Assembly (NCBI GenBank): GCA_001941045.1
Contig: MSHD01000030.1
Location: 19,528 to 83,527 of the forward strand
Reading direction: 5' to 3'
DNA: 64,000 nucleotides
Source of the DNA: Lachnospiraceae bacterium Zagget2
Lineage (GTDB): Bacteria > Bacillota > Clostridia > Lachnospirales > Lachnospiraceae
In this document: one piece after another, positions 34,275 through 49,873 of the stretch
How the letters are laid out: every line of letters starts with the position of its first letter
Position numbering within the stretch: position 1 is the first letter of the stretch
Position numbers and translations under genes: made by a program
The notes under the pieces: model-generated
Told to the model about the DNA's origin: nothing
Seen by the model: only the letters and a program-made list of their open reading frames with translations
The model's database searches: none

Positions 34275-35090
34275 TTACTGCCAGTTTCGTTTCAGAACCT
34301 CGCTTTTCAGCAGAAGGGTGCTCCGTGACGTCTCCTTGACAGGGTGAAGTTTTCCACGCCTGATCAGGTCATTGATGTTCTGTCTGGAGCAGCCCAGTAT
34401 TTCTGCCGCCTCCGCGGTATTGATAATCCGCTGCGCCGCAAAAGCGCGAAAATCTTCCATCACGAGCGGGACGCGCTCTCCGTATTGATATAAAAGATAG
34501 TCCGGAATATCCATATTCTCATCCCAGGCGACTCCATGTCCGCCGATCTCCATCCGCACGCTGTCAAACAGCTCCTCATTTCTCAGCAGAACAGAAAAAC
34601 GATCGCGTTCCCTGAACCAGCCGCTTAAGTCACATCTGCGCACCAGTCCGTCCCGAAAGAAAACAAGTAGTGTGCTATGCCCCAGAGAAATAACATCCTC
34701 GACCCGTTTCTCAAAGCGTCCCTGTATCTGCGGCGGCAACTCCTGCTCCTTTATCGGGAGGAGATAACAGTCGTCCTGCGCGCATCTTCCCAGGGACAGC
34801 AGAAGCAGTTCATATTCATCATACTCTTTCAGGCCGTTTTCTTTCAGCACCTGCCCGATATTCTGGCGATCCGGCGGAACAATTCTCTGCTGCACCCACA
34901 TTCTGCTCCAGTACGAGTTGACCGTTTTCTCTCCCTTTTTCACAAAGGAAGACAGCAGCAGCGGCGTCTCCCACTCGTCTGCTTCATCGGGAAGTTCGAT
35001 GTAAAAACGCTTTTCCGCCTCATAGTAGAGAAGCCATGCCAGATCCTTCTGAAGCTCCGCGCTCTCATCCTTGATTGCAAATATTTTCAT
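34275..35090 (-). CDS. HipA-N-like / DUF2442-like / excisionase-type HTH fusion
   Basis: RIVPPDRQNIGQVLKENGLKEYDEYELLLLSLGRCAQD; LLVFFRDG..CDL..FDSV..GGHGVAW..DI; INTAEAAEILGCSRQNINDLIRRGKL. Confidence 0.7.
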   Translation of the reverse strand: MKIFAIKDESAELQKDLAWLLYYEAEKRFYIELPDEADEWETPLLLSSFVKKGEKTVNSYWSRMWVQQRIVPPDRQNIGQVLKENGLKEYDEYELLLLSLGRCAQDDCYLLPIKEQELPPQIQGRFEKRVEDVISLGHSTLLVFFRDGLVRRCDLSGWFRERDRFSVLLRNEELFDSVRMEIGGHGVAWDENMDIPDYLLYQYGERVPLVMEDFRAFAAQRIINTAEAAEILGCSRQNINDLIRRGKLHPVKETSRSTLLLKSEVLKRNWQ

Positions 35091-35889
35091 ATACGCACCA
35101 CCGTTTCCAGATCATATCCCATATTTTATCCCGAAGATTCTGCGAAATCACATCGTCCAGCCCCTGCATAAGAAGCGCTCTGTGTTCGGGCAAGAGTCGC
35201 CGCAGCTTCGGGAACTGCCCCGGCGGTATGAATGTCAGATTTTCCTGTGTTGATCTGGAACCGATCCAGGTGTTGGTGAGCCGATCTTCCATCACGTCAT
35301 GCCCCGCGACGCTCTCCTCTGTAAGGCAGCTGAACAGTAAAGACAAGCCGTGGTCAAACAGCGGAGCCAGACGCAACGTCCGTTTCCGGCCATCACGCAG
35401 CAGTTCCATATTCGCGCCATGACGATCCCTGTTCAGAATAAGATAATCCACCACAAACATGGTATAAATATAGTCTGCCCACCCGTTGCGGATACAGAAA
35501 TCCAGTGGTGTTTCCCCTTTTTGATGCTCGCTTTCGTAATATACGTCCAGCGCAATCTTGCTCTCGCCCCGCTGCTTGAAATCGCGGGAAGCGCAGAGAA
35601 ATACTTCCTGCCGCCGCTCGCCAACCAGAATATCCGCATGAATCAGCTGATAATGCAGATGCTCTACACCCAGTACCGTGAGCAGCCGGTCAACAATCAG
35701 TTCATTTACACATTCATGACCGATCACGCCACGCATACTATCGTAATTAGAAAGCTTATAATAAATCTTTTCTCCTCCTAATTCCGAGTATGCTTTCAGG
35801 AACGATCCGGCTGTCCCTGAAGAATTTCGGCTTCTCGTCCAGGATAAATATGTGAGATCCTGCTTTTCCAATACAATATCTCCGCCCAT
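35065..35889 (-). CDS. HipA-like kinase
   Basis: GTAGSFLK, HECVNELIV, VDYLILNRDRHGANM, LAPLFDHGLSL; overlaps the downstream gene by 26 nt. Confidence 0.8.
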   Translation of the reverse strand: MGGDIVLEKQDLTYLSWTRSRNSSGTAGSFLKAYSELGGEKIYYKLSNYDSMRGVIGHECVNELIVDRLLTVLGVEHLHYQLIHADILVGERRQEVFLCASRDFKQRGESKIALDVYYESEHQKGETPLDFCIRNGWADYIYTMFVVDYLILNRDRHGANMELLRDGRKRTLRLAPLFDHGLSLLFSCLTEESVAGHDVMEDRLTNTWIGSRSTQENLTFIPPGQFPKLRRLLPEHRALLMQGLDDVISQNLRDKIWDMIWKRWCVYENICNQG

Positions 35890-35906
35890 AAAGACCTCCT
35901 GAAAAA

Positions 35907-35947
35907 AGTATAGCCAACTACTTGTCATATGTCAAGTAGTTGGCTAT
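35907..35947 (-). promoter_or_regulatory. Sigma-A promoter embedded in a 38-bp palindrome (also terminator-like)
   Basis: ATAGCCAACTACTTG-TCATATGT-CAAGTAGTTGGCTAT; minus strand TTGACA(35930-35)-N17-TATACT(35907-12) followed by TTTTT. Confidence 0.85.
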
Positions 35948-35982
35948 GATTTTCATCCGAACTTCCGCCTCGGTCTCGTGTT

Positions 35983-36354
35983 TTAATCGGAGGCCAGAAT
36001 CATCTCCTTCAATTCTCTGCAGGCCTTCAGAATTTCCCCGATCATCTCCGGACTGATTCCGTCAAGGTGGAGCCCGCAGCTGCAGACCACGGTGCAGTTT
36101 TTCTGAGTGGCAACCGCCTCCGCGATCTCACGGGCGACCACTTCCTCCTTATGTCCCAGGCAGTTCAGCACGGAAGTCGTCGCGCTAATGCCTTTTCCTG
36201 TCAGGCTGGGGCGCGCCGCGGAAAGACAGACGGAGCCGACATGTCCACCCGCCTCATCCCACAGACAGACCGTGTAATCCCTGCCCATCTCGATCACTTC
36301 GCAGTGCAGCGTGGTCCCGCACACGGATTTCTCATAATACCTCCTCATCCCCAT
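35983..36354 (-). CDS. lpdD: LpdD-like prenylated-flavin chaperone
   Basis: GGHVGSV, LGHKEEVVA, TVVCSCGLHLD; follows ubiD-ubiX. Confidence 0.7.
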   Translation of the reverse strand: MGMRRYYEKSVCGTTLHCEVIEMGRDYTVCLWDEAGGHVGSVCLSAARPSLTGKGISATTSVLNCLGHKEEVVAREIAEAVATQKNCTVVCSCGLHLDGISPEMIGEILKACRELKEMILASD

Positions 36355-36905
36355 CTTCTGAAATCCTCCGTTTCAATTCCAAAGGGCTGCAGCAGTCTTC
36401 CCACAATCTGTCGTTCCATCTCCGCGAGGCTCCCTGGATTGTGATAATAGGTGAGCACCGGCGGCATGAGAAAGACGCCCGGAATCCGCGAAAGCTTCAG
36501 CATGTTTTCCAGATGAATCGAGCTTAAGGGCGTCTCCCGCACCGCAAGAACGAGCTTTCGCTGCTCCTTGATCGTCACATCCGCCGCGCGCAGCAGCAGA
36601 TTATCGCTGTAACCATTCGCAATGCCGCTGACCGTTTTCATGGCGCAGGGCAGGATGATCATGCCGTCTGTCGGAAAACTGCCGCTCGCGACCGCTGCGC
36701 CGATATCGCTGTTGTCATAGCTCACGTCCGCGAGCGCGCGGATATCGTCCGCGGCAAGGTCACTCTCGTACTTTGCGGTCAGCTCTGCTCCCCGGGTGAA
36801 AATGACATGCGTCTCCACCTCCGGATTTTTCTTCAGTTCTTTCAAAAGGCATACGGCCAACGGAAAGCCGCTGGCTCCTCTGATGCCCACAATCAGACGT
36901 TTCAT
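36345..36905 (-). CDS. ubiX: Flavin prenyltransferase UbiX/LpdB
   Basis: IVGIRGASG, ASGSFPTDGMIILPCAMKT, DNLLLRAADVTIKEQRKLVLAVRETPL, MPPVLTYY. Confidence 0.93.
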   Translation of the reverse strand: MKRLIVGIRGASGFPLAVCLLKELKKNPEVETHVIFTRGAELTAKYESDLAADDIRALADVSYDNSDIGAAVASGSFPTDGMIILPCAMKTVSGIANGYSDNLLLRAADVTIKEQRKLVLAVRETPLSSIHLENMLKLSRIPGVFLMPPVLTYYHNPGSLAEMERQIVGRLLQPFGIETEDFRRWG

Positions 36906-38380
36906 ATTTTCATCTCGTCAGCCCACTTCTCCATGTCGATGTCCATGAACTTCGCACGTTCGAAGCGTTCTTTCTGGTCATAGGGTACCGTGCAGTCGAA
37001 GATCGCCTTGCAGGCCACGCCCACCGCGCGGATATCCGGTGTGTACTCGGGATTGTTCGACGGGTCGAGCGGATGGCACTGCACGCCCGGTATCATGATA
37101 ATATCCTTGTCCGCCTGGAAGCGCGTCGTCATCGCCCACAGCACATCCTTGATGTCAAAGGGATCGACGTCTTCATCTACCAGAAATACATGTTTGAGCT
37201 CTGCGAAGGCGCTGAAAGCCAGCAAACCCGCCTGTCTCTGCCGCCCTTCATCGGAAGGCATTGTCTTTTTGAACTGCATGACCGCAATGTATTTCCCACC
37301 ACCTGAGGAGGCGCAGTACACATTCTTAAGTCTGCCGGGCATGGCCTTCTCCACCATGGCGAGGATGCTGGCCTCGGTCGGTATACCCGCCATGGAGACG
37401 TGCTCCTCGGACGGTCCGATGCAGGTCTGCATGATCGGGTTCCGCCGCGTTGTGACCGCCTTGACCTTGATGATCGGCAGCGCCGGATTGGCCGGTCCGC
37501 AGTATCCGGGGAACTCAGGCATCGCCTTGCCGGTGCCGGACTGAATATCCTCCTGAATCCTTCTTCCCGGCAGCACTTCTCCTTCGATCACATACTCCGC
37601 GTTCGCGATCGCGCGCTCATTGATCGTCAGGCATTTCACCAGCTCCACCGGTTTCTTCCGGATCGCGCCCGCAGCCTGCAGCTCGTCATAACCGAGCGGC
37701 GTCGTGGGCGGCTCAAAGCAGGCCGCAATCTCGATCGCCGGATCCACTCCGATCGAAATCGAGATGGGAAGCGGTTCATTCCGCGCTTCCGCCAGCTCGT
37801 AGAAATGTCCGATATGGCGCGCACCCGGCTGGAAGAAAATTGAAATCTCATCCTTGCTCTGCAGGCACATGCGGTGAATCGTCACATCCGAGGTCCCGGT
37901 CTCCGGGCTCGTCGCGTAGCACATGCCGAGCGTGATATAGGGGCCGGCGTCCTCCTCCGTGTTCGTCGGGGCCGGAACCAGCTTCCTCACATCAAAGTCG
38001 GGATCCGTCGCCAGATGCACGATTTCCTGGCACTTTGCCTGCTCATTCGGGATCACAACCGGCGGCAGCGGGTTGGATACGCTGTCCTTCAGCAGAAATC
38101 CCAGCTTCTGCGGATCACAGTCCAGCAGCGCTCCCACGCGCTTTCTGCTTGCCAGCACACCGATCGCGACGCGCGCGTCCGGGTGTCCTTTCACATTGTT
38201 AAATACCATCGCCGGGCCTTCCTTTGTGGGGCGCATCACCGTCCCGCCTGCTCCCACATGGCGATAAACGCCGGAGAGCTCCGCCATTGGCTCGACCTCC
38301 ACATCCGTTTCCAGCAGCTGCCCCGGCATCGTTTTTAAAAATTCCAGGGCTGAACGCAGGCTGTCTACCTGATTTCCCAT
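36902..38380 (-). CDS. lpdC: UbiD-family decarboxylase, LpdC/AroY (gallate/protocatechuate) type
   Basis: AELSGVYRHVGAGGTVMRPTKEGPAM matches the AroY/LpdC N-terminus; DVTIHRMC, PEFPGYCG, EEHVSMAGIPTEASI, HPLDPS. Confidence 0.85.
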   Translation of the reverse strand: MGNQVDSLRSALEFLKTMPGQLLETDVEVEPMAELSGVYRHVGAGGTVMRPTKEGPAMVFNNVKGHPDARVAIGVLASRKRVGALLDCDPQKLGFLLKDSVSNPLPPVVIPNEQAKCQEIVHLATDPDFDVRKLVPAPTNTEEDAGPYITLGMCYATSPETGTSDVTIHRMCLQSKDEISIFFQPGARHIGHFYELAEARNEPLPISISIGVDPAIEIAACFEPPTTPLGYDELQAAGAIRKKPVELVKCLTINERAIANAEYVIEGEVLPGRRIQEDIQSGTGKAMPEFPGYCGPANPALPIIKVKAVTTRRNPIMQTCIGPSEEHVSMAGIPTEASILAMVEKAMPGRLKNVYCASSGGGKYIAVMQFKKTMPSDEGRQRQAGLLAFSAFAELKHVFLVDEDVDPFDIKDVLWAMTTRFQADKDIIMIPGVQCHPLDPSNNPEYTPDIRAVGVACKAIFDCTVPYDQKERFERAKFMDIDMEKWADEMKI

Positions 38381-38393
38381 AGCTTTCCTCCTT

Positions 38394-40781
38394 TTATTTT
38401 ACAGCTTCTGTAAGCTCTCCCCGCAGAAGAACCTTCTTTCCGCAGAGTTCCAGACGGACGTCCTCCGTTCCTGTGAGATTCTTCACTCTTACCTTTTCAT
38501 GATCCGCCGACACCTCCAGTTTCTGGCCCCGCCAGAGAATCGTATATACCAGGCGGCTCCATTCCTTCGGAAGGAAGGGGGCGATGCGAAGCTCTCCGCC
38601 GAGCATACGCAGTCCGCCGAAGCCATAGACCACACCCTGCCAGATTCCGCCGAACGAGGCGGTATGAATACCCGCATTCGAGCTGCCCATGACCGGTCCC
38701 AGATCGATCTGCGCGGATTTCTCAAAGAGATCATAGGCCATCTCCCCTTCCCGCATATCCGCGGCCAGCACCGCATGCGTGCAGAGGGAAAGCGACGAAT
38801 CATGCAGCGTCCTTGCCGCGTAATATTCCCAGGTCGCAGCCTTGACCTCGTGTGGGAACAGCTCCTCCAGCAGGAAAAACAGCACCAGCACATCCGCCTG
38901 CTTGCTGACCTGTATCTGATTGATCTGGGTCAGATTATAGTCGCGGAAGATTCCGTTCACGAAATCCTGCGACCTGTACTTGGACAGATCGATATCCTTC
39001 AGTGTCAGATAGGTGGAGTCCTGAGGCAGAATTCCCTGTTCATTCGGCACCGGCAGAAATACCCTGTCCACCTTTTCCGTCCACTGCTGATAATATGTCT
39101 CGAGATCCAGCTTCTCACACAGCCGCGCAAAGAGTTCCGGTTTCTGCTCCTTCAGAAGCTCATAGTATTCCATCGCCTTGCGGATGTTCCACACCGCAAG
39201 ATAATTTGTGAAGGCGTTGTCGGTCTTGTGCTCCTTGTACTCGTCGGGTCCCACCACATCGCAGATATGATAGAGACCGTCGTCCGTGACTGTCTCCGAG
39301 AATTCGGTCACCCCGGTCTTGGGGTTGATGCTCTCGTGAATCTGGCGGCACTTATCCTCCAGTCTCGACATCCAGAAACGCGCCGTATCAAAGATCAGCT
39401 CATAGCCGTAGCGCTCCATATAATCCTCGTCCCCGGTGATCGCGTAATACTGCCACACGCCGAAGGCCACATCCGCCGTGATGTGCTGCTCGATAAATCC
39501 CGACCATACCTTGATGGGAAGTCCCGTGACGATATCCACATCCTGATATTCCGGCGTCACCTCGCCATCGTCCAGCCATGCGGATTCCCAGGGAAACATC
39601 GCTCCCTGATAGCCATTGTGCTCTGCCTTCCGGTGCTCGCCCGGCAGCGACAGATAGCGGTACTCCTCCAGCTTGCGGGCCGTCTCCGGCTGCGTGAAGA
39701 TATAGTAGGGAAGCAGGAAAATCTCGGTGTCCCAGAAGCAATGCCCCCGGTAACCCTCGCCGGAAAGTCCCTTCGCGCCGATATTCAGCCGGTTGTCGTG
39801 CGCCGGCACCATCAGCCGCAGATGGTACTGCGCAAAACGGATCGCAAACTGATCGAAATCATTCCCCTCGATCGTGATGGGAATTCTGTCCCAGACCTCC
39901 TGCTTCCAGGCAGCCCCGGTTTCTGATGCGAGCGCGTCATATCCCAGCTCCAGCAGACCCTTCAGATCCGCGAGGGATCTCGTCTGCAGTTCAGAAACAG
40001 TCGCGCCTTCCGCGTCAAAATCCCGCGTTGTGAAGACGTTACAGTACTTTTCGATCGTCAGCGTTTCTCCCTGCTCCGCCTCCAGCTCGTATCCGCCGTA
40101 CACCTTCCGCAGCTCCATATACACCTGCGTCGGGACGTCCAGTTCCTCGCCATTCTTCGCGAAACGGTGCACCGTATTCAGCACAAAGCTGATGCCTGAC
40201 TCCGTCGTCTTCGGCACAAACTGCATGTATCTGTTTTCATAAAAGCGTTTGTCGCCGTCCGTGAAATGCTGTGCACCGGTGTTGGTGACGCGCCCGTCGA
40301 TACCGGAGCGGACTTTGATTTCCATTTTCCCGGAGAGCGGCGTGATCTCCACGCGGCTCGCGAAATCATGAAGCCTCTCAAGAGATACGACTCTGCGAAA
40401 ATGCAGCCTCACCTGGTCGCCCTCCGGCGAGGTCCACACGACCTTCCTTGTAAGCTCCGCTTTGCGGATGTCAAGCTCTCTTTCGTATTCCTCGATTTTC
40501 CCCTTCTCCAGGTTAAAGCGCACGCCGTTCAGCCACAGCTCGATCGCCGTCATGTCCGGGGCATTCGGGAGCTCAGTCACCGCGGTCGGGTCAGATTTGT
40601 TGAAGGTTCCGCCCACCAGCAGATCCCGCGTTTCATGCAGGTACTTCTCCTCCGTCGCGCTGCGCAGCCCGAGATAGCCGTTTCCCAGCGACATCACCGC
40701 CTCGCACTTCCCAAGCTGTTCTTCGTCAAAACAGTCCTCCCGGAGAATCCAGTCGTTTATCTTACTGTAATCCATTCCCAT
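38394..40781 (-). CDS. Glycoside hydrolase family 65 (alpha-glucoside phosphorylase-like)
   Basis: GNGYLGLRSATEE, GAKGLSGEGYRGHCFWDTE, VVGPDEY, SKQAD, HDSSLS, GIHTASFGGIW; start reset to MGMDYSK. Confidence 0.92.
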   Translation of the reverse strand: MGMDYSKINDWILREDCFDEEQLGKCEAVMSLGNGYLGLRSATEEKYLHETRDLLVGGTFNKSDPTAVTELPNAPDMTAIELWLNGVRFNLEKGKIEEYERELDIRKAELTRKVVWTSPEGDQVRLHFRRVVSLERLHDFASRVEITPLSGKMEIKVRSGIDGRVTNTGAQHFTDGDKRFYENRYMQFVPKTTESGISFVLNTVHRFAKNGEELDVPTQVYMELRKVYGGYELEAEQGETLTIEKYCNVFTTRDFDAEGATVSELQTRSLADLKGLLELGYDALASETGAAWKQEVWDRIPITIEGNDFDQFAIRFAQYHLRLMVPAHDNRLNIGAKGLSGEGYRGHCFWDTEIFLLPYYIFTQPETARKLEEYRYLSLPGEHRKAEHNGYQGAMFPWESAWLDDGEVTPEYQDVDIVTGLPIKVWSGFIEQHITADVAFGVWQYYAITGDEDYMERYGYELIFDTARFWMSRLEDKCRQIHESINPKTGVTEFSETVTDDGLYHICDVVGPDEYKEHKTDNAFTNYLAVWNIRKAMEYYELLKEQKPELFARLCEKLDLETYYQQWTEKVDRVFLPVPNEQGILPQDSTYLTLKDIDLSKYRSQDFVNGIFRDYNLTQINQIQVSKQADVLVLFFLLEELFPHEVKAATWEYYAARTLHDSSLSLCTHAVLAADMREGEMAYDLFEKSAQIDLGPVMGSSNAGIHTASFGGIWQGVVYGFGGLRMLGGELRIAPFLPKEWSRLVYTILWRGQKLEVSADHEKVRVKNLTGTEDVRLELCGKKVLLRGELTEAVK

Positions 40782-40797
40782 GGTTTTTCTCCCCGTA

Positions 40798-42534
40798 TTA
40801 ACGCGCGCAGATCGATTCGATCCAGTCACAGAGCTCGCCCGGATAGTCCGCCTCACAGTGCGGCTTATCCCACACGAGCGCATAGTCCACATCCTTCCCC
40901 GCATTCGCAAGCTCCAGAGCCAGCGTCATGCTGACAGAGAAGGAGGTGTCGGCGTCGCCTGCGCCCACGCGGATCCGATAATGCTCCGCACAGTCGCTCT
41001 TCTCTTCCGTGCCGATATAGTTCAGCGGATTGATCAGGTATTTCTGCCTGGTAAGCGCGCTGTCTTCCGCCACCTGCGCGTATTTCTCATAATAACGCGC
41101 ATACTCTTCCGGAAATGCTTCCTTTAGGGAGGCAATCGCGTCGGCGATCTGCCCGGAAAAATGAGTGACCGGCATCGCCGCATCTCCAAATACCTTATTT
41201 TCCCCGCTGCTGCAGTTCAGCACGTCAAACGCCGTACAGGGCTTCATCCTGCGCCTGTGCGCGAGTACATAGCTGTCGAGATCGGAGACCGCGGCGGTAC
41301 TTCCGTCCCACTTCAGCCAGCCGCTCTTATCTTTTCCCTGCGCCATCACGGTCGGCGGCACAAAGGGCGGCGGGGTCGGCACTCCCTTCGGCGGTCTGGA
41401 AACCATGTCTCCGAGCGTCGGAGGCTCTGCGGGCGCGTCCCCTGCCATGCCCGCGGGCGGCTTTCGGAGCGCCACGCCCGGTCCGGCATGACCCTGCATC
41501 AGATCGGACTCATCGTCCTTGTTGTCTCCGCCCATCGGCGCTGCGATCTCGTAAGTGTAATTTCCCTTCAGATAATCATCCGCCGTATAGCTTTCCGCAA
41601 GTTCTCCTCTGTCCAGCTTTCCAAGGAACTTCGTCGCGGACTGATTCAGAAGATTCATCAGATACGCGTATCCGCTGCCGCTTCTGCCATCCGCGCCAAG
41701 CATGATCGCCGCGCCTGTCTTCGGATCTTTCAGGCCAAGACCATTAAAATACGCGATATAGGCCTCCTTCAGCTTTCCGGAGAGCGCCTCCTCAAACGGA
41801 GTCATCGTCCCGGCCGGTCCCGCAGGCGAGGCCTCGTTCTCCTTATCCGCCGAGAACATCCACTCATACGCGAGATCCGCGTGTTCCAGATCGATGATCG
41901 GACAGTAAATCTGTGAAGCATATACGTCGTCGCGCTCTTCCATGAAAGCGCCCGCTTCTTTTAAAGCTTCTTCATAATTCGCGCTGTTTCCTGTCACGCC
42001 GACCAGCGTGGACATCGCCCCGCCGGCACTCCAGCCAACAGAGATGATCCGATCCATATCGCCCGGAATCAGCGCGCTGTTATGACGCAGGAAGCGCAAC
42101 GCCATCTTCAGATCGATCAGATTCGCCGGCGCCTTGCCGCAGCGCCGCCCTTTTGCATCCTTCGACTCATGCCCCCGGTTCCCGCTTGTCACATACACAA
42201 ATCCTCTCTCGAGATACTGCGGACCGAAGCAGCGCGGTCCGCCGAGCCACATATGCGGCATCTGCATATAGCCCGCAGAATTGTTATTGAAAATGACGGG
42301 CGCTGTCTTCGCCGTGTAGCCGTTCATGCTGCCCTGCGGATCGATCACACCGCCCTCCTTCATATAGGGCTCAGGAACAAAAATACTCATCCGCTGAAAT
42401 TTCGGGCATTCTGCTTTTGGCGTATACAGAATATCTTCCAGGCACCAGCAGTTGTAGGTTTCATCAAAAAACCACTGATCCTGCACTTCAGACAGTTCCA
42501 TGGTCTGATTAATCACCGGAATATCATTTCCCAT
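40798..42534 (-). CDS. Subtype-B tannase-like esterase, no signal peptide
   Basis: NGYTAKTAPVIF, GKAPANLIDLKMALRFLRHN..IPGDMDRIISVGWSAGGAMS, YCPIIDLEHADLAYEW, RIRVGAGDADTS, WDKPH. Confidence 0.78.
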   Translation of the reverse strand: MGNDIPVINQTMELSEVQDQWFFDETYNCWCLEDILYTPKAECPKFQRMSIFVPEPYMKEGGVIDPQGSMNGYTAKTAPVIFNNNSAGYMQMPHMWLGGPRCFGPQYLERGFVYVTSGNRGHESKDAKGRRCGKAPANLIDLKMALRFLRHNSALIPGDMDRIISVGWSAGGAMSTLVGVTGNSANYEEALKEAGAFMEERDDVYASQIYCPIIDLEHADLAYEWMFSADKENEASPAGPAGTMTPFEEALSGKLKEAYIAYFNGLGLKDPKTGAAIMLGADGRSGSGYAYLMNLLNQSATKFLGKLDRGELAESYTADDYLKGNYTYEIAAPMGGDNKDDESDLMQGHAGPGVALRKPPAGMAGDAPAEPPTLGDMVSRPPKGVPTPPPFVPPTVMAQGKDKSGWLKWDGSTAAVSDLDSYVLAHRRRMKPCTAFDVLNCSSGENKVFGDAAMPVTHFSGQIADAIASLKEAFPEEYARYYEKYAQVAEDSALTRQKYLINPLNYIGTEEKSDCAEHYRIRVGAGDADTSFSVSMTLALELANAGKDVDYALVWDKPHCEADYPGELCDWIESICAR

Positions 42535-42555
42535 TATTTTCTCTCACCTCCTGTT

Positions 42556-43201
42556 TTATAATAGCACAATCTTCTTTAATTCTTCAATGGACTGCATGGG
42601 CCAGGTGGCCGTCTCTGCCGCCTCTCCGATCCCGGCGCTGTCCATCCCTCCGCGCGTCGCGGCTGTCACGCCGGCCTTCGCATCCTCCACGACCAGACAC
42701 TTTTCCGGGGAAAGTCCCAGCATTTCAGCCGCTTTCAGGAACACCTCCGGATCCGGCTTGGAATGCGTGATATTCGTCCCGTCGCTGACCGCGTCAAAAC
42801 AGTTTTCCAGCCCCAGCCTTTCCAGTATCAGTTTTGTATTTTTACTGGACGAGCCGATCGCGATCCGGATTCCGGCCTTCTTCAGCGTTCTCAGCACATC
42901 CTGCACATCCGCCGGAAGATCTTTCTCCGACATCTGAAAGAGCAGTTCCCGGTACATCCGGTTTTTTTTCTCACACAGTCTTTCCTTTTCCTCCGGAGAA
43001 TAGCTCCGCTCTGCCTTTTCCAGGATAATCTCCAGGCTCGCCATCCGGCTCACGCCCCTTAAGCGGTCGTTTGATTTTCCCGTCAAAATAAATGCCTTCT
43101 TCATCCGCGATGGCTTTCCACGCAAGATAATGATACTTGTCTGTAAAACAGATCACACCGTCCAGGTCAAAAATCACCGCCTGATATCGCACTCTTTTCA
43201 C
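42556..43201 (-). pseudogene. pgmB: Beta-phosphoglucomutase, split by a +1 frameshift
   Basis: IFDLDGVICFTDKYHYLAWK in one frame; NDRLRGVSRMASL..SSSKN..KPDPEVF..VVEDA in another; extra A at about 43072-43074. Confidence 0.85.
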
Positions 43202-43204
43202 CTC

Positions 43205-44842
43205 CTACAGGCGCGCGTCCGGCAGGCCGCAGAACGCGTCGACAGGGGACACTCCCTTAAATTCACTTTTTCCGAGCAGCTTTTCGATCACCGCTTCAAT
43301 CATTGCGCGATGACAGCTGTACGCATTGATATAAGTCTTCACCCGCGGCACGTCCTGCAGATGATAAGGATTGGAGAAGGAAACAAAGACAGCACTTTCT
43401 TCCCACACATGACGCGGCACGTCGAGTGCGTGCTTTTTCGCCCAGTTCAGCCGGATCGTAGTCTGATTGGAGGCATGCTCGCAATTTGCCAGATACAGCG
43501 TCAGCCGTTTCCTGTCAAGCGCACCGGTCCCGTGCATCTCTTCCTTTTCGATATCAAAGCGCTCCGTCTGAAAGCCTTCCCTTTGCAGGATTTCCTCCGC
43601 GATCGCGGTCATACTGCCATCCACCGTATGGTCATTTCCGAGCGTCACCAGCCGGATAAGAGGATATTCCTCGGGGCTGATCGGAAGCAGTTCTTCTATA
43701 TTTTTTACAAGTGTCACGCATTTATCCGCGCATTCTGCCTGCCACAGCTTCGCCTCTGGCATCGGCTCCGTCTTCGGCCTGTTTCCTGCGACTTTTGCCT
43801 TCAGAGCCAGAATGCGGCTGACCTCTTCGTCAAGACGCGACTCCGTCAAAGCCCCACTTTCCAGGCCGTCCAGCATATACTGGTAATCCTCGTAAAAATC
43901 TGTGCTGAATACCAGCATATCACAACCCGCCGCGATAGCGGTCGGTATCGCATGCCGCCGCGGCATCGCCTGCGTAAATCCGCTCATGATCGTCGCATCC
44001 GTCGTGATCAGGCCGTTAAAGCCAAAACGCTCACGCAGCACGCCCGTGAGCAGCTCCCGGCAGAGCGATCCCGGCAGACAGTCCTCAAAGCGCAGCTTTG
44101 GATTGATCTCCATCGCCACATTTGGCTGTACGATATGTCCCACCATGACGCTCATCAGGCCGTCCTCGATCAGCTGCTGATAGATTGCTCCATAGCTGGC
44201 AAACCAGTCCTTTGCCGACAGACTGTTGTAGGTCGGATGCAGGTGCTGATCCCGGAAATCCACGCCATCCCCCGGAAAATGCTTCGCGCAGGCCGCCATT
44301 TCGTTTTTCTGCAAAGTTTTTACATAAACGGAGCAGAGCCGTTTGACGCGCTCTACATCTGAGCCGCAGGTACGGACATTGGTGATCGGATTCCGGTAAT
44401 TCATGTCGATATCGCATACCGGGGAAAAGGCCCAGTTGACCCCCGTCATCTGCCCCTCCCGGGCGCAGACGGTGGCGAACTTCTCCATCATTCCGTCCTC
44501 ATCCGTCGCCGCCACAGTCATCGGCCAGCCAAAGAAGGTACCGTCGCTGATTGCTCCGCTTCCGCCCTCCTCCAGGTTCGCCGCCCGCAGAAGGGGAATC
44601 CTGGCAGCGGCGTCCAGCACAGCGTACCAGTCCCTGATATCCGCCGCGGGCGCGGGGCGATAGAGGACGCCGCCCACATTGTACTCGGTGACGATCCGCT
44701 CCAGCTCCTTCAGTTCAAAATCACCGCCCATCACACAGAAAAGCTGCCCCACCTTCTGCCGGACGGACAGGGAATCCCGCGTCTCATTGACCCAGCGCAG
44801 CTCCTCCTCCGTCAGATAAAACGGCTTCTTCCTTAAATCCAT
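43205..44842 (-). CDS. Glycoside hydrolase family 3
   Basis: NLEEGG, FSPVCDI, NPITNVR, KHFPGDG, MSVMVGHI, ITTDAT; no signal peptide; start reset to MDLRKKP. Confidence 0.9.
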   Translation of the reverse strand: MDLRKKPFYLTEEELRWVNETRDSLSVRQKVGQLFCVMGGDFELKELERIVTEYNVGGVLYRPAPAADIRDWYAVLDAAARIPLLRAANLEEGGSGAISDGTFFGWPMTVAATDEDGMMEKFATVCAREGQMTGVNWAFSPVCDIDMNYRNPITNVRTCGSDVERVKRLCSVYVKTLQKNEMAACAKHFPGDGVDFRDQHLHPTYNSLSAKDWFASYGAIYQQLIEDGLMSVMVGHIVQPNVAMEINPKLRFEDCLPGSLCRELLTGVLRERFGFNGLITTDATIMSGFTQAMPRRHAIPTAIAAGCDMLVFSTDFYEDYQYMLDGLESGALTESRLDEEVSRILALKAKVAGNRPKTEPMPEAKLWQAECADKCVTLVKNIEELLPISPEEYPLIRLVTLGNDHTVDGSMTAIAEEILQREGFQTERFDIEKEEMHGTGALDRKRLTLYLANCEHASNQTTIRLNWAKKHALDVPRHVWEESAVFVSFSNPYHLQDVPRVKTYINAYSCHRAMIEAVIEKLLGKSEFKGVSPVDAFCGLPDARL

Positions 44843-44862
44843 AAGCTCTCCTTTTAGGGGAT

Positions 44863-44892
44863 TGCCCCGGCGCCTTTGGGCGTGCCGGGGCA
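44863..44892. other. GC-rich intergenic stem-loop without U-tract
   Basis: TGCCCCGGC-GCC-TTTG-GGC-GT-GCCGGGGCA between esterase and GH3. Confidence 0.6.
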
Positions 44893-44896
44893 TCCT

Positions 44897-45832
44897 TTAG
44901 AGGTATTTGCTGATAAAGTTCCAGATAATATCCAGATTTTTATCCTCACCGTACTGTTTGTCTTCATGATCAGCTGTCGGCAGCGTTGTGAACTCCACGC
45001 GCTCCTCCCCGATTTTTGCCTTCACGGCTTCCACCAGCTTCACGGACTGCTGATATGGTACCAGCCGGTCCACACAACCATGCTGCACCAGCAGCGGCGC
45101 CATCCCATCATTGATATAGGTGATCGGATTCGCCTTCGCCAGATATTCCTTATCCAGCGTCGGGAGCGGACCGCCCATATAGCTGCTCTCCGCGGATTCC
45201 GGCTGGTCGTGGTCGACGAAGCTGACGCCGTTCTCGCGCGCCATATCGTCCATCACCGCGAAGTCCACCGGGCCGAACTGATCCACCGCCACATTGACAT
45301 GACAGTCTTCCGTAAAGCTTTTCCCCTCTTCCCCAGGGAACGCCCCGTTCGGGATGTTCATACCCAGTATCGCGCTTAAGTTTCCCCCGGCGGAACCACC
45401 GATTGTAGCCATGCGCTCCGGGTCAAGGCGATACTTCTGCGCATTCCTTTTCAGGAAGCGCACCGCCTCCCGGCAGTCCAACACCGCTGCGGGAAAGATT
45501 GCTTCCCCGCTCAGCCGGTACTCGATGGAGCCCACCGCGATCCCTTTTGCAAGGAATTTCAGATAGGTATCCATATGATCGTCGCGCTTGTCTCCCAGGC
45601 CAAAGCCGCCGCCGTGGATATGAAGTAGTACCGGGAATGGTCCTTTGCCATCCTCCGGATAATAGAGGTCCAACCGCTGATTCGGCGATTCCTCCGCGTA
45701 CTGCACATCCAGCAGCTTATCCTTCACCCAGCTGATATCCGCCATCTTCACCTGCATATCCGCAGGCGGTCCGTCAAAGCGGAGCGAGCCGTCCAGCGCG
45801 TCATAATCCAGTGTTTCCTTTTTTTCTTCCAT
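44897..45832 (-). CDS. Alpha/beta-hydrolase esterase (HSL/BD-FAE-like)
   Basis: IHGGGF, GGSAGG nucleophile, QHGCVDRLVP, ADHED. Confidence 0.88.
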   Translation of the reverse strand: MEEKKETLDYDALDGSLRFDGPPADMQVKMADISWVKDKLLDVQYAEESPNQRLDLYYPEDGKGPFPVLLHIHGGGFGLGDKRDDHMDTYLKFLAKGIAVGSIEYRLSGEAIFPAAVLDCREAVRFLKRNAQKYRLDPERMATIGGSAGGNLSAILGMNIPNGAFPGEEGKSFTEDCHVNVAVDQFGPVDFAVMDDMARENGVSFVDHDQPESAESSYMGGPLPTLDKEYLAKANPITYINDGMAPLLVQHGCVDRLVPYQQSVKLVEAVKAKIGEERVEFTTLPTADHEDKQYGEDKNLDIIWNFISKYL

Positions 45833-45850
45833 TTTCTGTCATCTCTCCTT

Positions 45851-47224
45851 TTACGCTTCCATCGGCGGTCTCTTGTCTCCGATCTGCGCGCGGATCTGCG
45901 GCATATATTTCTCCACGTCCATAAGCAGGATGCCGATGATCAGCAGGACCGCGAGGATCACGCCCAGCCAGCCAAAGCCGAAGCGCACGATATTGACCAC
46001 GGCCTCAGACTGCACCGCCGCAGTCGCCTCATAGCCCGCGAAGGCCAGCAGGAAAGCCGGAAGTGCCTGACCAAGTCCCATACCGATCTTGGAGCCGATA
46101 GACTGGGAGGAAGCCATGAATCCCTCTGAGCGGATACCGGTCTTCCATTCTCCATAGTCAGCGGCGTCCGCGCAGAACGCGTAGAGGCCGGCGAACATCG
46201 GGCTGATGCCGAGCGAACGAATCACGGTGCCCGCGAGCAGCATAGTGACATTGGCGCCCGCCATACCTGTCACAGCAAAGCCAATCGCCAGGATGATGCC
46301 ACAGCCGGTCAGGAAAATCCGCTTGGAAAATTTATTGGATATGTAGGGCATGAACAGCAGCATGATCAGTCCGGGCGCCTGGCCGAAAGCCATGAGCTGC
46401 ACCAGCACTGCCGGATTGTTCAGTACGATGTTGCAGTAGTAAATCTGGAACGCGACTGCGTTCGCGTTGATCAGCAGGATAATGACGCCGAGCACCAGCG
46501 CAATCCAGAAATAACGGTTTGTGAGGACCGCTTTCAGCTGCGTCATCATCGGAACGTCACTCTTCGGCGCGGGCGCTCCCGGGCCATCCATCTCGACGAC
46601 CTCATCCACACCGACCGTCTCCTTGCAGAACAGTCCCGGAATCATGATCAGCACGCAGGCGATCACGCCGAGAATCAGTCCGGTATTCGCCCAGCCGATC
46701 TGCAGGTACATGGCCGCGACCGCCGTGCTGACCACCAGACCAACAATGCCGTTCATCAAGGATGAGAAGGTGGACGTCGTGTTGCGGTCTTTCGGGTCGC
46801 GCGTCATACGTGCGAGCAGCGCGGTATGCGCGACGCCGACGATCGTGTAGACAATGCAGTTGACAAAAATATAGGTGACGTAAGCATATACAATCTTCGT
46901 GCCGTCAGCCCAGTTCGGATTGACGCGGAAGGTCAGCGTCATGCCGAGCAGCATCAGCGGGCCTGCGGCGATCAACCAGGGTCTCGCCTTGCCCAGTTTA
47001 CTTTTGGTTCTGTCCACCAGGCCGCCCATGACAAAGTCTGTGATACCGTCAAACACACGGCAGATCACCATCATGCTGGCCACAGCCGCCGCCGCGATCA
47101 GCGCGGTATCCGTGTAGTAACTCAAAAGGAAGCTGGCAAACACGGTACTGACAACATTGCCGCCTCCCGCGCCGCAGCCGTATGCCAGCTTTCGGCTTAC
47201 CGGGATCTTTTTACTTTCGTTCAT
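45851..47224 (-). CDS. GPH-family MFS glycoside:cation symporter
   Basis: RVFDGITDFVMGGLVDRTKSKLGKARPW, DAADYGEWKTGIRSEG; ~12 TM segments. Confidence 0.9.
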   Translation of the reverse strand: MNESKKIPVSRKLAYGCGAGGGNVVSTVFASFLLSYYTDTALIAAAAVASMMVICRVFDGITDFVMGGLVDRTKSKLGKARPWLIAAGPLMLLGMTLTFRVNPNWADGTKIVYAYVTYIFVNCIVYTIVGVAHTALLARMTRDPKDRNTTSTFSSLMNGIVGLVVSTAVAAMYLQIGWANTGLILGVIACVLIMIPGLFCKETVGVDEVVEMDGPGAPAPKSDVPMMTQLKAVLTNRYFWIALVLGVIILLINANAVAFQIYYCNIVLNNPAVLVQLMAFGQAPGLIMLLFMPYISNKFSKRIFLTGCGIILAIGFAVTGMAGANVTMLLAGTVIRSLGISPMFAGLYAFCADAADYGEWKTGIRSEGFMASSQSIGSKIGMGLGQALPAFLLAFAGYEATAAVQSEAVVNIVRFGFGWLGVILAVLLIIGILLMDVEKYMPQIRAQIGDKRPPMEA

Positions 47225-47331
47225 TATGAAATCTCCTTTTCCTTTCGGGTGGCGGGCCCTGCCATCCCATATCGCACAGTCACGTTTTATAAAACAGTTT
47301 TTGTGATATTTTCATTTTAATTCGACTTTTC

Positions 47332-47379
47332 TTGACAAACAATTCCAATAAAATGTATACTGATTCCAGATTGGAATCA
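47332..47379 (+). promoter_or_regulatory. LysR promoter and T-N11-A operator
   Basis: TTGACA(47332-37)-N18-TATACT(47356-61) overlapping TGATTCCA-GAT-TGGAATCA (47361-79). Confidence 0.75.
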
Positions 47380-47420
47380 TATTTTTTTATGCAAACTGTC
47401 GAATTGGAAGGGAGATAGAC

Positions 47421-48329
47421 TTGAATCTGGAATATTTTCGCGAATTTGTCGTACTGGCTGACACTGCCAATTATTACGAGGCCGCGGACCGGCTTTATAT
47501 GGGAGAGTCCACCCTCTCAAAGCATATTAAGTCAATGGAGAAGGAACTCGGGGTCAGCCTGTTCGACCGCTCTACCCGCAAAATCGCCCTGACAAACTTC
47601 GGCAAGCTTCTTTTGCCCTACGCCAAGACCATCATGCAGGCGCAGTTCGATTACACCGCGGAGCTGGAAAATGAAGTAGAATCCCTGCGGGGCCGCGTCA
47701 CGGTCGGCACCATCTCCTCCACCGCAAAATATGGCATCACCGGTATCGTCTCCCGCTTTAAAAAGCTGCATCCGGACAGCACGGTCCGCATGTTCGAGGG
47801 TGATCCTGACGATCTGGTGACACAGCTCAACAGCCGCAAGTGCGACGTGATCTTCGCGCATCTGCCGGAGAGCGCTTCCGCGTCCATCGCCTTTGAGAGC
47901 ATTCATTACTGCGACGATTCGCTGGTCTGCATCCTGCCGCTCGATCACCCGCTCGCAGGCGAAAAGGTACTGCATCTCAATCAGCTTAAAGACGAAAACT
48001 TCGTCGTGCTGGCCGAGAATAGTACCATCCATAATCTCATTATAGACAGTTGTCACAGGGTTGGATTCTCGCCGAAGATGGCGTTTATCTGCCACAGAGT
48101 GGACAGCGTCCTGGATCTGGTGACGAAAGGAATGGGCGTCGCCCTCCTGACGGAATATCTGACTTTCCGCCCGGAAGACGGCAATTTCCCGGAGAATGCC
48201 CCCTTTGCCGTCGCCCACGTATTACCCGAGGTAAACGTGTCCGTCAATCTCTGCTACCGCAAAGGGGACAGGCTCTCGCCCATGGCGAGACAGTTCGTAG
48301 AACTGGTGAAAGACATGATAAAGGAATAG
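47421..48329 (+). CDS. LysR-family regulator divergent from the catabolic cluster
   Basis: TTG start after GGAG; YYEAADRLYMGESTLSKHIKSMEKELGVSLFDR. Confidence 0.92.
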   Translation: MNLEYFREFVVLADTANYYEAADRLYMGESTLSKHIKSMEKELGVSLFDRSTRKIALTNFGKLLLPYAKTIMQAQFDYTAELENEVESLRGRVTVGTISSTAKYGITGIVSRFKKLHPDSTVRMFEGDPDDLVTQLNSRKCDVIFAHLPESASASIAFESIHYCDDSLVCILPLDHPLAGEKVLHLNQLKDENFVVLAENSTIHNLIIDSCHRVGFSPKMAFICHRVDSVLDLVTKGMGVALLTEYLTFRPEDGNFPENAPFAVAHVLPEVNVSVNLCYRKGDRLSPMARQFVELVKDMIKE

Positions 48330-48335
48330 CACTGC

Positions 48336-49310
48336 CTATTTCAGATACGCTCTGAAAAAGTCCTCCATCTTGTCAAACGGAATAACGTCCATCCGGTCGT
48401 AGAGGTCCGTGTGAACCGCTCCCGGAATGATCATCAGCTCCTTGTTGTCGCCGGTCAGCTTCGCAAAAGCGTCCCTGCTGAAGTAGCAGGAGTGCGCCTT
48501 TTCGCCGTGAATGACGAGGACGGCGTTACGTATCTCCTGGCTGTACTGCAGGATCGGCATGTTGAGGAAGGACTCACAGCCCGTCACGTTCCAGCCGCCG
48601 TTGGAGTTCAGGCTGCGGGGATGATAGCCGCGCTCTGTTTTATAATAATCATAATAGTCCTTCACGAAGAACGGCGCGTCCTCCGGCAGCGGGTCGACCA
48701 CACCGCCGCCCAGCGCGTAGCTGCCGTTTTTGTAGTCCTCGATGCGCTGCGCGCAGAGCGCCTTGCGCTTCTCATAACGGGCTTCCTCGCTGTCCTCACT
48801 GTCAAAGTAACCCTTCGCGTTCACGCGGGTCATGTCGTACATGGTGGAGGCCACGGTCGCCTTGATACGGGTGTCCAGCGCCGCCGCATTGAGCGCCATG
48901 CCGCCCCAGCCGCAGATGCCGATGATGCCGATCCGTTCCGGGTCCACCTCGGTCTGCACGGACAGGAAATCCACCGCCGCCATGAAATCCTCCGTATTGA
49001 TATCCGGGGATGCCATGTAGCGGGGCTGTCCGCCGCTCTCGCCGGTGTAGGAAGGGTCGAAGGCGATCGTCAGGAAGCCCCGCTCCGCCATCGTCTGTGC
49101 GTACAGGCCGGAGGACTGCTCCTTCACCGCGCCGAAGGAACCGCATACCGCGATGGCCGGGAGCCTGCCGGATGCATCCTTCGGCTCGTAGAGATCAGCC
49201 GCCAGCGTGATGCCGTAGCGGTTGTAAAACGTCACTTTTCTGTGGTTTACCTTGTCACTTTTCGGAAATACTTTATCCCATTCCATTGTCAGGTTCAGTT
49301 TTTCTTCCAT
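48336..49310 (-). CDS. Alpha/beta hydrolase (YcjY/COG1073-like)
   Basis: FYNRYGITLAADLY, GAVKEQSSGLYA, GICGWGG, IHGEKAHS, AVHTDLYD; start reset to MEEKLNL. Confidence 0.85.
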   Translation of the reverse strand: MEEKLNLTMEWDKVFPKSDKVNHRKVTFYNRYGITLAADLYEPKDASGRLPAIAVCGSFGAVKEQSSGLYAQTMAERGFLTIAFDPSYTGESGGQPRYMASPDINTEDFMAAVDFLSVQTEVDPERIGIIGICGWGGMALNAAALDTRIKATVASTMYDMTRVNAKGYFDSEDSEEARYEKRKALCAQRIEDYKNGSYALGGGVVDPLPEDAPFFVKDYYDYYKTERGYHPRSLNSNGGWNVTGCESFLNMPILQYSQEIRNAVLVIHGEKAHSCYFSRDAFAKLTGDNKELMIIPGAVHTDLYDRMDVIPFDKMEDFFRAYLK

Positions 49311-49333
49311 AATAAATACCTCACTTTCGATTT

Positions 49334-49843
49334 TTATTTCAAAATGCCATACTGGCTGTCCGGAGCCGCGTCCTCCGCCCATTTTTTCAGTTCCGCGGCG
49401 CTCTGCCTGCCGTTCAGGAGTTTGCCGACTACGATTTCCGTATCCGATGATACGGATGCTTTCAGGGCATCCGCGGTGCGCCCGAATCCGCTGCCGCCGG
49501 AAGTGGCAAAGAGGATGATCTTCTTTCCAGAAAAATCATAGCTTTCCAGGAAGGTGTTGACAATCGTGGGCGCGACGCCCCACCAGATCGGAAATCCCAG
49601 AAAGATCGTATCATATTCCGCAATACCGGCACTCTGATCTGCAAGCGCGGGTCGGCTGGAAAGATCGTTCATCTCCACCGAGCTGCGCGACTTTTTGTTC
49701 GTCCAGTCCAGATCCGCATTGGTATAAGGCACCTGCGGCCGGATCTCATATATGTCCGCGTCCGCTGCCTGCGCCAGTGCCTTTGCCGCAGCTGCGGTCA
49801 CACCGCTGGCTGAAAAATATGCCACTAACTTTTTATCTGCCAC
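49334..49843 (-). CDS. Flavodoxin
   Basis: VAYFSASGVT, FLGFPIWWG, FATSGGSG. Confidence 0.9.
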   Translation of the reverse strand: MADKKLVAYFSASGVTAAAAKALAQAADADIYEIRPQVPYTNADLDWTNKKSRSSVEMNDLSSRPALADQSAGIAEYDTIFLGFPIWWGVAPTIVNTFLESYDFSGKKIILFATSGGSGFGRTADALKASVSSDTEIVVGKLLNGRQSAAELKKWAEDAAPDSQYGILK

Positions 49844-49873
49844 AATATGGTCCTCCTTTTCTACTATCTTGAT

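Follow-up and report, generated by a model that had tools for sequence, protein, structure and literature searches.

Which acylated phenolic glycosides a gut clostridium could take apart inside the cell, and what would become of the sugar, is the question raised by a compact operon in a 64,000-nucleotide stretch of DNA from Lachnospiraceae bacterium Zagget2 (GenBank assembly GCA_001941045.1, contig MSHD01000030.1, positions 19,528 to 83,527 of the forward strand). This whole stretch is hereafter called the window, and all positions are counted from its first letter. Diet and forage contain hydrolysable tannins and phenolic glucosides among their major compounds, and the gallic acid and pyrogallol that gut microbes produce are bioactive. 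To our knowledge, the bacterial genetics of tannin use, as established for Lactiplantibacillus and Streptococcus gallolyticus, is limited to ester hydrolysis and decarboxylation. The operon described here sets the genes of a tannase and an LpdC/AroY-type decarboxylase beside those of a predicted glycoside hydrolase family 3 (GH3) phosphorylase, a beta-phosphoglucomutase (beta-PGM) and a glycoside hydrolase family 65 (GH65) phosphorylase. Its gene content, protein families, catalytic residues, compactness, synteny and gene fusions make it probable, if well short of assured, that these genes form a cytoplasmic operon, associated with LysR, that handles small acylated phenolic beta-glucosides, likely galloyl-glucoses together with related hydroxybenzoyl or aryl glucosides.

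Organization of the Operon

Protein families were assigned with Pfam and NCBIfam, the curated cutoffs being used for equivalog calls. The open reading frame (ORF) listing and these assignments agree with the layout given in the original prediction, which was made from the sequence without database searches: nine co-directional genes on the minus strand, with gaps of no more than 54 nt, lie opposite a divergent LysR gene. The features are the following.

47421..48329, plus strand: LysR-family transcription regulator with HTH_1 and LysR_substrate domains, divergent from the operon
47225..47420, 196 nt: divergent control region, consensus matches only
45851..47224, minus strand: GPH (glycoside-pentoside-hexuronide):cation symporter, presumed glycoside importer; TIGR00792, 247 bits (cutoff 231), and MFS_2, 238 bits
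44897..45832, minus strand: BD-FAE family carbohydrate/aryl esterase with a GGSAGG serine motif; PF20434, 191 bits
43205..44842 (alternative upstream ATG at 44893), minus strand: predicted BglP-like GH3 retaining beta-glucoside phosphorylase; similarity to PDB 5VQD
42556..43192, minus strand: beta-phosphoglucomutase with a +1 frameshift; TIGR01990 after repair
40798..42534, minus strand: subtype-B tannase; NF041556, 353.2 bits (cutoff 300)
38394..40781, minus strand: predicted GH65 inverting alpha-glucoside phosphorylase, kojibiose-phosphorylase-like; 420 bits to CsKP (PDB 3WIQ)
36902..38380, minus strand: UbiD-family (AroY/LpdC-type) hydroxybenzoate decarboxylase; 648 bits to PDB 5NY5
36345..36905, minus strand: UbiX/LpdB flavin prenyltransferase, predicted maker of prenylated flavin mononucleotide (prFMN) for the UbiD enzyme; NF004685, 237 bits (cutoff 188), and Flavoprotein domain
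35983..36354, minus strand: LpdD-family small subunit or chaperone; PF21758, 98.5 bits (cutoff 27)
35909..35948, minus strand: terminator-like hairpin with a 15-16 bp stem followed by a T-run, closing the operon after LpdD

The curated cutoffs are exceeded by the GPH symporter, the tannase, UbiX and LpdD, and by beta-PGM only once its frame is repaired. In the order of transcription the intergenic gaps measure 18, 54, 12, 21, 16 and 13 nt; thereafter the UbiD, UbiX and LpdD genes overlap by 4 and 10 nt. The 54-nt gap between the esterase and GH3 genes shrinks to 3 nt if the GH3 gene begins at the earlier ATG (44893). In the control region, a LysR promoter-like site at 47332-47361 matches 11 of 12 consensus positions, and the last base of its -10 hexamer is also the first base of a perfect 8-bp inverted repeat, TGATTCCAGATTGGAATCA, at 47361-47379. 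The repeat includes the T-N11-A core typical of LysR boxes and is a plausible candidate for such a box. An Rfam scan of the 34-50 kb interval returned no riboswitch or leader element. As the original prediction had stated for the hydrolases, which it found to lack signal peptides, a heuristic check detected no hydrophobic N-terminus in any of the soluble enzymes, which makes a cytoplasmic location reasonable for all of them. Only two sequencing runs contain 5-8% of the words of the window, and no RNA run was found.

The GH3 Enzyme as a Predicted Phosphorylase

The GH3 protein had been listed among the hydrolases in the original prediction. Its similarity to PDB 5VQD, the neighbourhood of beta-PGM and the existence of gene fusions instead identify it as a BglP-type phosphorylase, with beta-glucose-1-phosphate as the predicted product. 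In a search of PDB sequences, 5VQD (BglP) is the single outstanding match, aligned end to end (4e-147, 494 bits), and NagZ-type structures reach at most 133 bits; BLASTP gives 46% identity to 5VQD over 559 aa, that is, over the full length. The segment KHFPGDGVD(F/Y)RDQH and the nucleophile region are conserved between the two proteins, the window enzyme carrying KHFPGDGVDFRDQH, with its Asp-Gln-His motif, and GLITTDAT. Among 114 members of the BglP-type family surveyed, 102 have DQH and the remainder DHH, and none has Ser or Thr between Asp and His. The Gln of this motif is presumably the residue reported to set the specificity of BglP. The database gene call gives a protein of 545 aa, and the frame is likewise open from the upstream ATG at 44893.

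Only two GH3 phosphorylases have been characterized; they are retaining enzymes that yield beta-glycosyl phosphates (PMC8950772). For BglP, the same review gives beta-glucose-1-phosphate as the product formed from activated aryl beta-glucosides (PMC8950772). The window enzyme matches BglP (PDB 5VQD/5VQE) in domain length and in the KHFPGDGVD(F/Y)RDQH motif. BglP came from a metagenomic fosmid by way of an activity screen, whereas the window enzyme lies within a tannase/decarboxylase operon and has a genomic link to beta-PGM. The study of BglP (Macdonald et al. 2018) reportedly did not establish its physiological substrate or pathway context, and we know of no established physiological pathway for any GH3 beta-glucoside phosphorylase.

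The tie to beta-PGM is readily apparent when the wider family is considered. In 80 metagenome loci anchored on BglP-like GH3 genes, no neighbour is as frequent as beta-PGM, present in 51; the next family occurs in 13. Where at least 3 kb is available on both flanks, beta-PGM is present in 23 of 31 loci and immediately adjacent (within 150 nt) in 12. Even for GH3 homologues of less than 50% identity, beta-PGM lies nearby in 20 of 28 cases, and tannase and UbiD in none of the 28. Furthermore, the protein database contains at least 11 clusters of beta-PGM::GH3 fusions, 753-759 aa long; in the two that were scanned the beta-PGM parts score 231-236 bits (cutoff 189), and one fusion is a continuous ORF on two independent contigs. 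As the product predicted for GH3, beta-glucose-1-phosphate, is the substrate of beta-PGM, GH3 is the main partner of the mutase. The distribution of these neighbours suggests that the GH3/beta-PGM pair is old and general; its recruitment into a tannase operon is specific to one clade.

The fusions (P0168-P0174, P0177, P0178, P0182 and P0190; loci L167 and L168) have beta-PGM at the N-terminus and come from many metagenomes. The neighbours of the fusion ORF that was checked are an ABC transporter of the oligopeptide type and an FMN-dependent dehydrogenase rather than a tannase. In the wider BglP-like family, GPH or ABC sugar transporters also recur near the GH3 gene, as do AraC regulators, GH78 rhamnosidases and GH1 enzymes, a setting that fits plant aryl glycosides. 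GH78 genes accompany BglP-like GH3 genes in 9 of the 80 metagenome loci, and one cluster of a gut genome that likewise looks devoted to plant glycosides (L086:4529-15207) encodes, in this order, a GH3 protein of 569 aa, GH78, two GH65 proteins, a metallo-beta-lactamase-fold protein and a HAD protein, under an AraC regulator. The proximity of GH78 and GH3 hints at phosphorolysis of flavonoid rhamnoglucosides.

A narrower proposal, advanced tentatively and less likely than not, is that the tannase-associated GH3 clade acts as a beta-glucogallin (1-O-acyl-beta-D-glucose) phosphorylase, yielding beta-glucose-1-phosphate and gallate. Phosphate would attack the anomeric carbon of the energy-rich 1-O-galloyl-beta-glucose, the carboxylate serving as a leaving group similar to the activated aglycones preferred by BglP. 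We take the pKa of the carboxylate to be near that of dinitrophenol, by means of which BglP was discovered.

The Frameshift in Beta-PGM

The beta-PGM gene listed in the original prediction is frameshifted in the window and in frame in two close relatives. An extra A at 43070-43072 shifts the frame by +1 after codon 40, so that the 40 N-terminal codons, with the DLDG nucleophile motif, stand in one frame and the remainder in another. Where the window reads ATCAAACGACC, a relative that is 94-96% identical (locus L073) reads ATC-AACGACC, the extra A being the only difference that matters, and an independent contig of run X2 likewise lacks it. The repaired protein scores 244.7 bits on TIGR01990 (cutoff 189.4) and is a clear beta-PGM, and the longest intact ORF stays below the same cutoff at 179.5 bits, lacking model residues 1-34. 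Over 8.9 kb collinear with L073 the frameshift is the sole coding indel, two further indels being intergenic, and a generally poor assembly is thus unsupported as the cause. The lesion is either a true pseudogene peculiar to this strain or a single error of assembly. As a backup beta-PGM, the HAD gene at 33599-34255 was rejected, as it is phosphoglycolate-phosphatase-like and reaches 33 bits on the beta-PGM model.

GH65 as a Predicted Accessory Phosphorylase

The mechanically called GH65 ORF is over-long, and its start was reassigned to the ATG at 40781, which is preceded by a GGGGAG ribosome-binding site. The protein is closest to the kojibiose phosphorylase of Caldicellulosiruptor (CsKP, PDB 3WIQ; 420 bits). 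Mapping by the residue table of a review (PMC11442529) places the catalytic acid at Glu514 and the phosphate site at Lys337, Tyr344, Ser662, Ser663 and His706, equivalent to CsKP E483 and to K330, Y337, S631, S632 and H675, respectively. The presence of the catalytic acid and of the full phosphate site points to a phosphorylase, not a hydrolase. The -1 subsite is also present (Phe349, Trp350, Asp351, Lys627, Gln628). At the +1 site, Trp398, Glu399 and Ser427 (W-E-S) stand against W391, E392 and T417 (W-E-T) in CsKP, the W and E being shared with nigerose phosphorylases as well. Further differences from CsKP, besides Ser for Thr417, are an insertion of about 25 aa by the catalytic acid and TPE in place of TPK. 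Taking these residues together, alpha-1,2 specificity is likely but not certain.

Kojibiose-phosphorylase operons (CsKP 3WIQ; E. coli YcjT) have in common with the window the catalytic acid, the phosphate site, the W-E-(T/S) motif and a beta-PGM gene in the operon; unlike them, the window has its GH65 gene between a tannase and a decarboxylase. Homologues 69-76% identical to the window GH65 are found alone, in a HAD-ROK-GH65 operon (L085) and in a GH3-GH78-GH65-GH65-HAD cluster, and the notion of a cluster-specific GH65 subfamily was rejected in view of these unrelated contexts. The original prediction had made GH65 and beta-PGM the core route for the sugar. This does not hold: close GH65 homologues occur in unrelated contexts, and GH65, present in 19% of tannase loci with full flanks (see below), is an optional accessory module.

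Tannase and Esterase

The window tannase aligns with the tannase structures of Lactiplantibacillus plantarum at 222 bits. Its Ser169 (in GWSAGG), Asp527 and His559 align with the catalytic triad of the L. plantarum enzyme TanLp, and its Lys431, Glu445 and Asp529 with the gallate contacts of that enzyme. In TanLp, we take the triad to be S163, D419 and H451 and the gallate contacts K343, E357 and D421 (4J0C-series structures). All six residues are invariant in 15 homologues of 63-77% identity, and the cap region contains an insertion of about 95 aa. The protein is predicted to be a cytoplasmic subtype-B tannase with activity on gallate esters. An exact look-up of its sequence found it not on record. 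The esterase, which is also predicted to be cytoplasmic, has metagenomic and acetyl-xylan esterases as its closest structures and resembles carbohydrate esterases.

The Decarboxylase Trio

The UbiD-family protein is 57% identical over 490 aa (648 bits) to the 3,4-dihydroxybenzoate decarboxylase AroY of E. cloacae (5NY5). On the VdcC model it reaches 480 bits, below the cutoff of 650, and consequently it is not a VdcC equivalog. The family PF21758, to which the small partner belongs, is named LpdD_chaperone in newer Pfam releases, and a PDB sequence search with LpdD returned no homologue of solved structure. The window holds no gene acting on pyrogallol or catechol, and the description of the locus as a complete catabolic system in the original prediction was therefore too strong.

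Recurrence across Gut Clostridia

One genome per species was scanned with the tannase alignment, giving 80 loci with tannases 58-98% identical. Nearly all are from metagenome-assembled genomes (MAGs) of gut Clostridia, with the cultured Petralouisia muris in addition, and they span Lachnospiraceae, Oscillospiraceae, Christensenella-like and other Clostridia. Neighbours were identified in two ways that gave concordant results, by tblastn with the ten window proteins and by unbiased all-against-all clustering of every neighbouring ORF. The clustering, carried out around 83 tannase loci, returned as its top families exactly those of the window, namely esterase, LysR, UbiD, GH3, GPH, UbiX and beta-PGM, then GH65; only parts of ABC sugar transporters come next. 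Where the tannase-anchored genome loci extend for 8 kb or more to each side (36 loci, the full-flank set), the esterase is the commonest neighbour (86%), followed by UbiD (81%), LysR (72%), UbiX (69%), GPH (67%), GH3 (61%), beta-PGM (44%) and GH65 (19%). With partners recurring at 44-86%, the arrangement exceeds chance. All seven partners, LysR and LpdD not being required, occur together in L030, which is Petralouisia muris NM01_1-7b, and in L056, L062 and L073.

Gene content is kept and gene order is shuffled among lineages. In a Blautia-like genome, for example, a LysR gene faces esterase-GPH-esterase-tannase-GH3-HAD-UbiD-UbiX-LpdD. Moreover, fusions cross the borders between modules, the tannase being joined to LpdD, to beta-PGM (one record) or to the BD-FAE esterase (L169:9001-11142; P0027, P0040, P0070, P0028, P0096); the LpdD::tannase fusion was verified in L169. 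Downstream of this fusion, the GH65 gene of L169 has decayed to fragments. That the genes serve one class of substrates, acylated phenolic glucosides, is suggested by the fusions and by the conservation of synteny. The central claim of the original prediction, that a single cytoplasmic LysR-associated operon joins a gallate-type esterase, sugar enzymes and an LpdC/UbiX/LpdD decarboxylase, is supported, and the synteny search it had proposed shows the same gene set in many gut Clostridia genomes.

An Exchangeable Regulator-Transporter-Esterase Cassette

The comparison with L073 reveals a sharp division within the locus. From the GH3 start to the terminator (44845-35920) the two sequences are 95.6% identical, and the flank past LysR (48330-49727) is 91-96% identical. 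In contrast, the LysR-GPH-esterase segment between them (window 44845-48330 vs L073:2180-5819) shows 67-68% nucleotide identity or is unalignable, as for LysR itself, with the breakpoints right at the GH3 start and at the LysR end. The regulator/transporter/esterase cassette is cleanly replaced between two strains that are otherwise 91-96% identical. This pattern suggests that the LysR-GPH-esterase trio sets the substrate specificity, the downstream processing genes being constant. A crude count gives about 8 hydrophobic segments in the GPH symporter.

Directly behind the terminator, a 1.65-kb segment (34270-35920) has no counterpart in L073, which has 58 bp at that point. The segment encodes an HTH_17 protein (34275-35090) and a 287-aa ORF without a family match (35065-35928), and it lies at the edge of a low-GC region (28-36 kb, 46-50% GC) with genes for HipA-like, RhuM/Fic and truncated MatE proteins, a region that resembles mobile or variable DNA. 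On the other side, convergent with LysR, a co-directional set of genes on the minus strand (48336-54415) encodes an alpha/beta-hydrolase (dienelactone-hydrolase-like), flavodoxin_4, aldo-keto reductases and a flavodoxin-aldo-keto-reductase fusion; this set may act on quinones or aromatic aldehydes, and its LysR-proximal part (48330-49727) is kept beside the cluster in L073. Apart from this flavodoxin/aldo-keto-reductase operon and the toxin/mobile-type genes, the rest of the window holds housekeeping genes for ValRS, a Mur-ligase-like protein, Tex and ABC-F.

Proposed Pathway and Alternative Explanations

According to the reading favoured here, the GPH symporter would import the intact glycoside. 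The tannase would then take off galloyl or protocatechuoyl esters and the BD-FAE esterase other acyl groups, after which GH3, with phosphate, would cleave the remaining beta-glucosidic (possibly 1-O-acyl) bond to give beta-glucose-1-phosphate instead of free glucose. Such phosphorolysis would save one ATP per glucose, which matters for a fermenting anaerobe. Beta-PGM would convert beta-glucose-1-phosphate to glucose-6-phosphate, which enters glycolysis, and GH65, where present, would add alpha-(1,2)-type glucosides to the same beta-glucose-1-phosphate pool. The prFMN-dependent LpdC/AroY enzyme, with UbiX and LpdD, would turn gallate or protocatechuate into pyrogallol or catechol. These would leave the cell, the ring not being degraded by the locus.

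Several observations weigh against this pathway. Every substrate, like the direction of flux and the regulation by LysR, is inferred. GH3 is absent from 39% of the full-flank tannase loci and beta-PGM from 56% (within 8-10 kb), indicating that the phosphorolytic arm is a frequent, not an obligatory, module. The frameshift in beta-PGM leaves the pathway incomplete in this sequence unless the genome has another beta-PGM elsewhere. The presence of GH65 in a tannin context is unexplained, alpha-1,2-glucosides being atypical tannin components. The UbiD protein is as much protocatechuate-decarboxylase-like as anything, and gallate and protocatechuate as its substrates appear indistinguishable by sequence. 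Since the Asp-His dyad of the GH3 enzyme is common to NagZ-type hydrolases too, its assignment as a phosphorylase relies on the similarity to BglP and the link to beta-PGM, with no diagnostic motif. Finally, in the homologous Blautia-like locus a 2156-nt RNA-seq contig crosses the tannase-GH3-HAD junctions and lends weak support to co-transcription; the run is of low depth and covers the flanking genes to the same extent, and DNA carry-over is possible.

It is conceivable that the targets are not galloyl compounds at all. The operon could serve protocatechuoyl, vanilloyl or hydroxybenzoyl glucose or acylated aryl glucosides, with the tannase acting as a general hydroxybenzoyl esterase and UbiD producing catechol; the mechanism would be unchanged and the substrate family alone would differ. 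The best characterized relatives of the UbiD protein are indeed 3,4-dihydroxybenzoate decarboxylases (648 bits, 57%), and L. plantarum TanB also hydrolyses protocatechuate esters, just as LpdC also decarboxylates protocatechuate. The association of distant BglP-like GH3 genes with GH78 and GH1 points toward plant aryl glycosides in general, and the exchange of the LysR-GPH-esterase cassette between close strains suggests a variable specificity. However, the tannase keeps all three of the residues by which the L. plantarum enzyme touches the hydroxyls of gallate, and these do not vary within the family; the protein exceeds the curated cutoff for subtype-B tannases, and proven gallate decarboxylases lie within the AroY/LpdC family. 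Taking both sides into account, this alternative is unlikely. Much harder to sustain is the version of the original prediction, in which GH3 would be a hydrolase, whether a common beta-glucosidase or one of the NagZ type, and would free glucose, with beta-PGM serving GH65 alone. Its best NCBIfam match is in fact a beta-N-acetylhexosaminidase (98 bits, cutoff 207), the dyad is shared with NagZ as noted above, and GH65 and beta-PGM form a classical pair, as in the HAD-ROK-GH65 operon of L085. Nevertheless, the gap between 494 bits to BglP and at most 133 bits to any NagZ is wide, beta-PGM accompanies 15 of the 22 full-flank tannase loci with GH3, 10 of these 15 being without GH65, it is the dominant neighbour of BglP-like GH3 in loci lacking GH65, and beta-PGM::GH3 fusions exist. 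We therefore hold this explanation to be very improbable.

A further alternative questions the unity of the operon itself. Tannin detoxification, generic beta-glucoside use and alpha-glucobiose use might be independent modules without a common substrate, held together by co-regulation or hitch-hiking, the benefit being mainly tolerance of tannins and not carbon. Such a view draws on the occurrence of tannase-esterase-GPH-LysR alone in L010, L011, L015 and L065, on GH3 and beta-PGM found without tannase and GH65 found elsewhere, and on the decay of GH65 in L169. It is at odds with the operon-tight spacing and single terminator, with the interleaved order, in which the esterase and tannase genes flank GH3 and beta-PGM and the GH65 gene separates the tannase gene from that of UbiD, with the recurrence of the same combination in shuffled order across bacterial families, and with beta-PGM::tannase and LpdD::tannase fusions, which cross the module borders. 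We consider it improbable.

Comparison with Known Systems and Significance

In L. plantarum the regulon consists of tanB (lp_2956), lpdC (lp_2945), gacP (lp_2943) and tanR (lp_2942), and lpdB/lpdD (lp_0271/0272) lie elsewhere. In that organism lpdC is co-transcribed with the transporter gene and tanR (PMC8004764, citing Jimenez 2013 and Reveron 2017). The window shares with that organism an intracellular subtype-B tannase, a UbiD-type decarboxylase that needs UbiX-type and LpdD partners, and a regulator gene alongside, and the L. plantarum system likewise ends at pyrogallol with the ring uncleaved. Unlike in L. plantarum, all three decarboxylase genes and the tannase gene are within one operon in the window, and the only transporter is a GPH glycoside symporter, whereas L. 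plantarum has a gallate transporter. The window adds to the L. plantarum set the BD-FAE esterase, the GH3 phosphorylase, beta-PGM and GH65, from which it follows that the sugar part would be processed too. Tannase is also linked to gallate decarboxylase in the tanB/sgdCBD genes of S. gallolyticus (PMC4218992), and CbTan1 of Clostridium butyricum adjoins a gallate decarboxylase (PMC8958541), both organisms being gut anaerobes. Unlike the window, neither account reports a glycoside transporter, phosphorylase or beta-PGM. A 2022 study described the transport of tannins as unknown (PMC8958541).

Within the collection of full texts searched, no paper connects either a tannase or a gallate decarboxylase to a GPH transporter, a GH3 phosphorylase or beta-PGM, an absence that is no proof in itself. 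It agrees with the original prediction, which knew of no characterized locus joining tannase and LpdBCD with GH3/GH65; the gene set is nonetheless widespread in public genomes, including those of the cultured Petralouisia muris and of a Blautia-like organism. The locus is a variant of the known tannase/LpdBCD loci, with sugar-processing partners added.

To this picture the locus brings a candidate for the importer, a further esterase and an arm that would salvage the sugar by phosphorolysis, and the same set is present in common gut Clostridia (the Blautia-like genome, Roseburia MAGs and Petralouisia). The near-universal link to beta-PGM, together with the tannase and decarboxylase genes of one clade, gives GH3 phosphorylases a concrete physiological context and a candidate role open to direct test. 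The enzymes might also find use in the production of beta-glucose-1-phosphate and in glycoside synthesis. If the suggestion drawn from the comparison with L073 is true, the exchangeable LysR-GPH-esterase cassette would be a specificity module. Should the tentative assignment of beta-glucogallin activity be true, the BglP family would receive its missing physiological role, and a beta-glucogallin phosphorylase together with a GPH importer would constitute an unrecognized energy-conserving route by which gut Clostridia live on the units of hydrolysable tannins.

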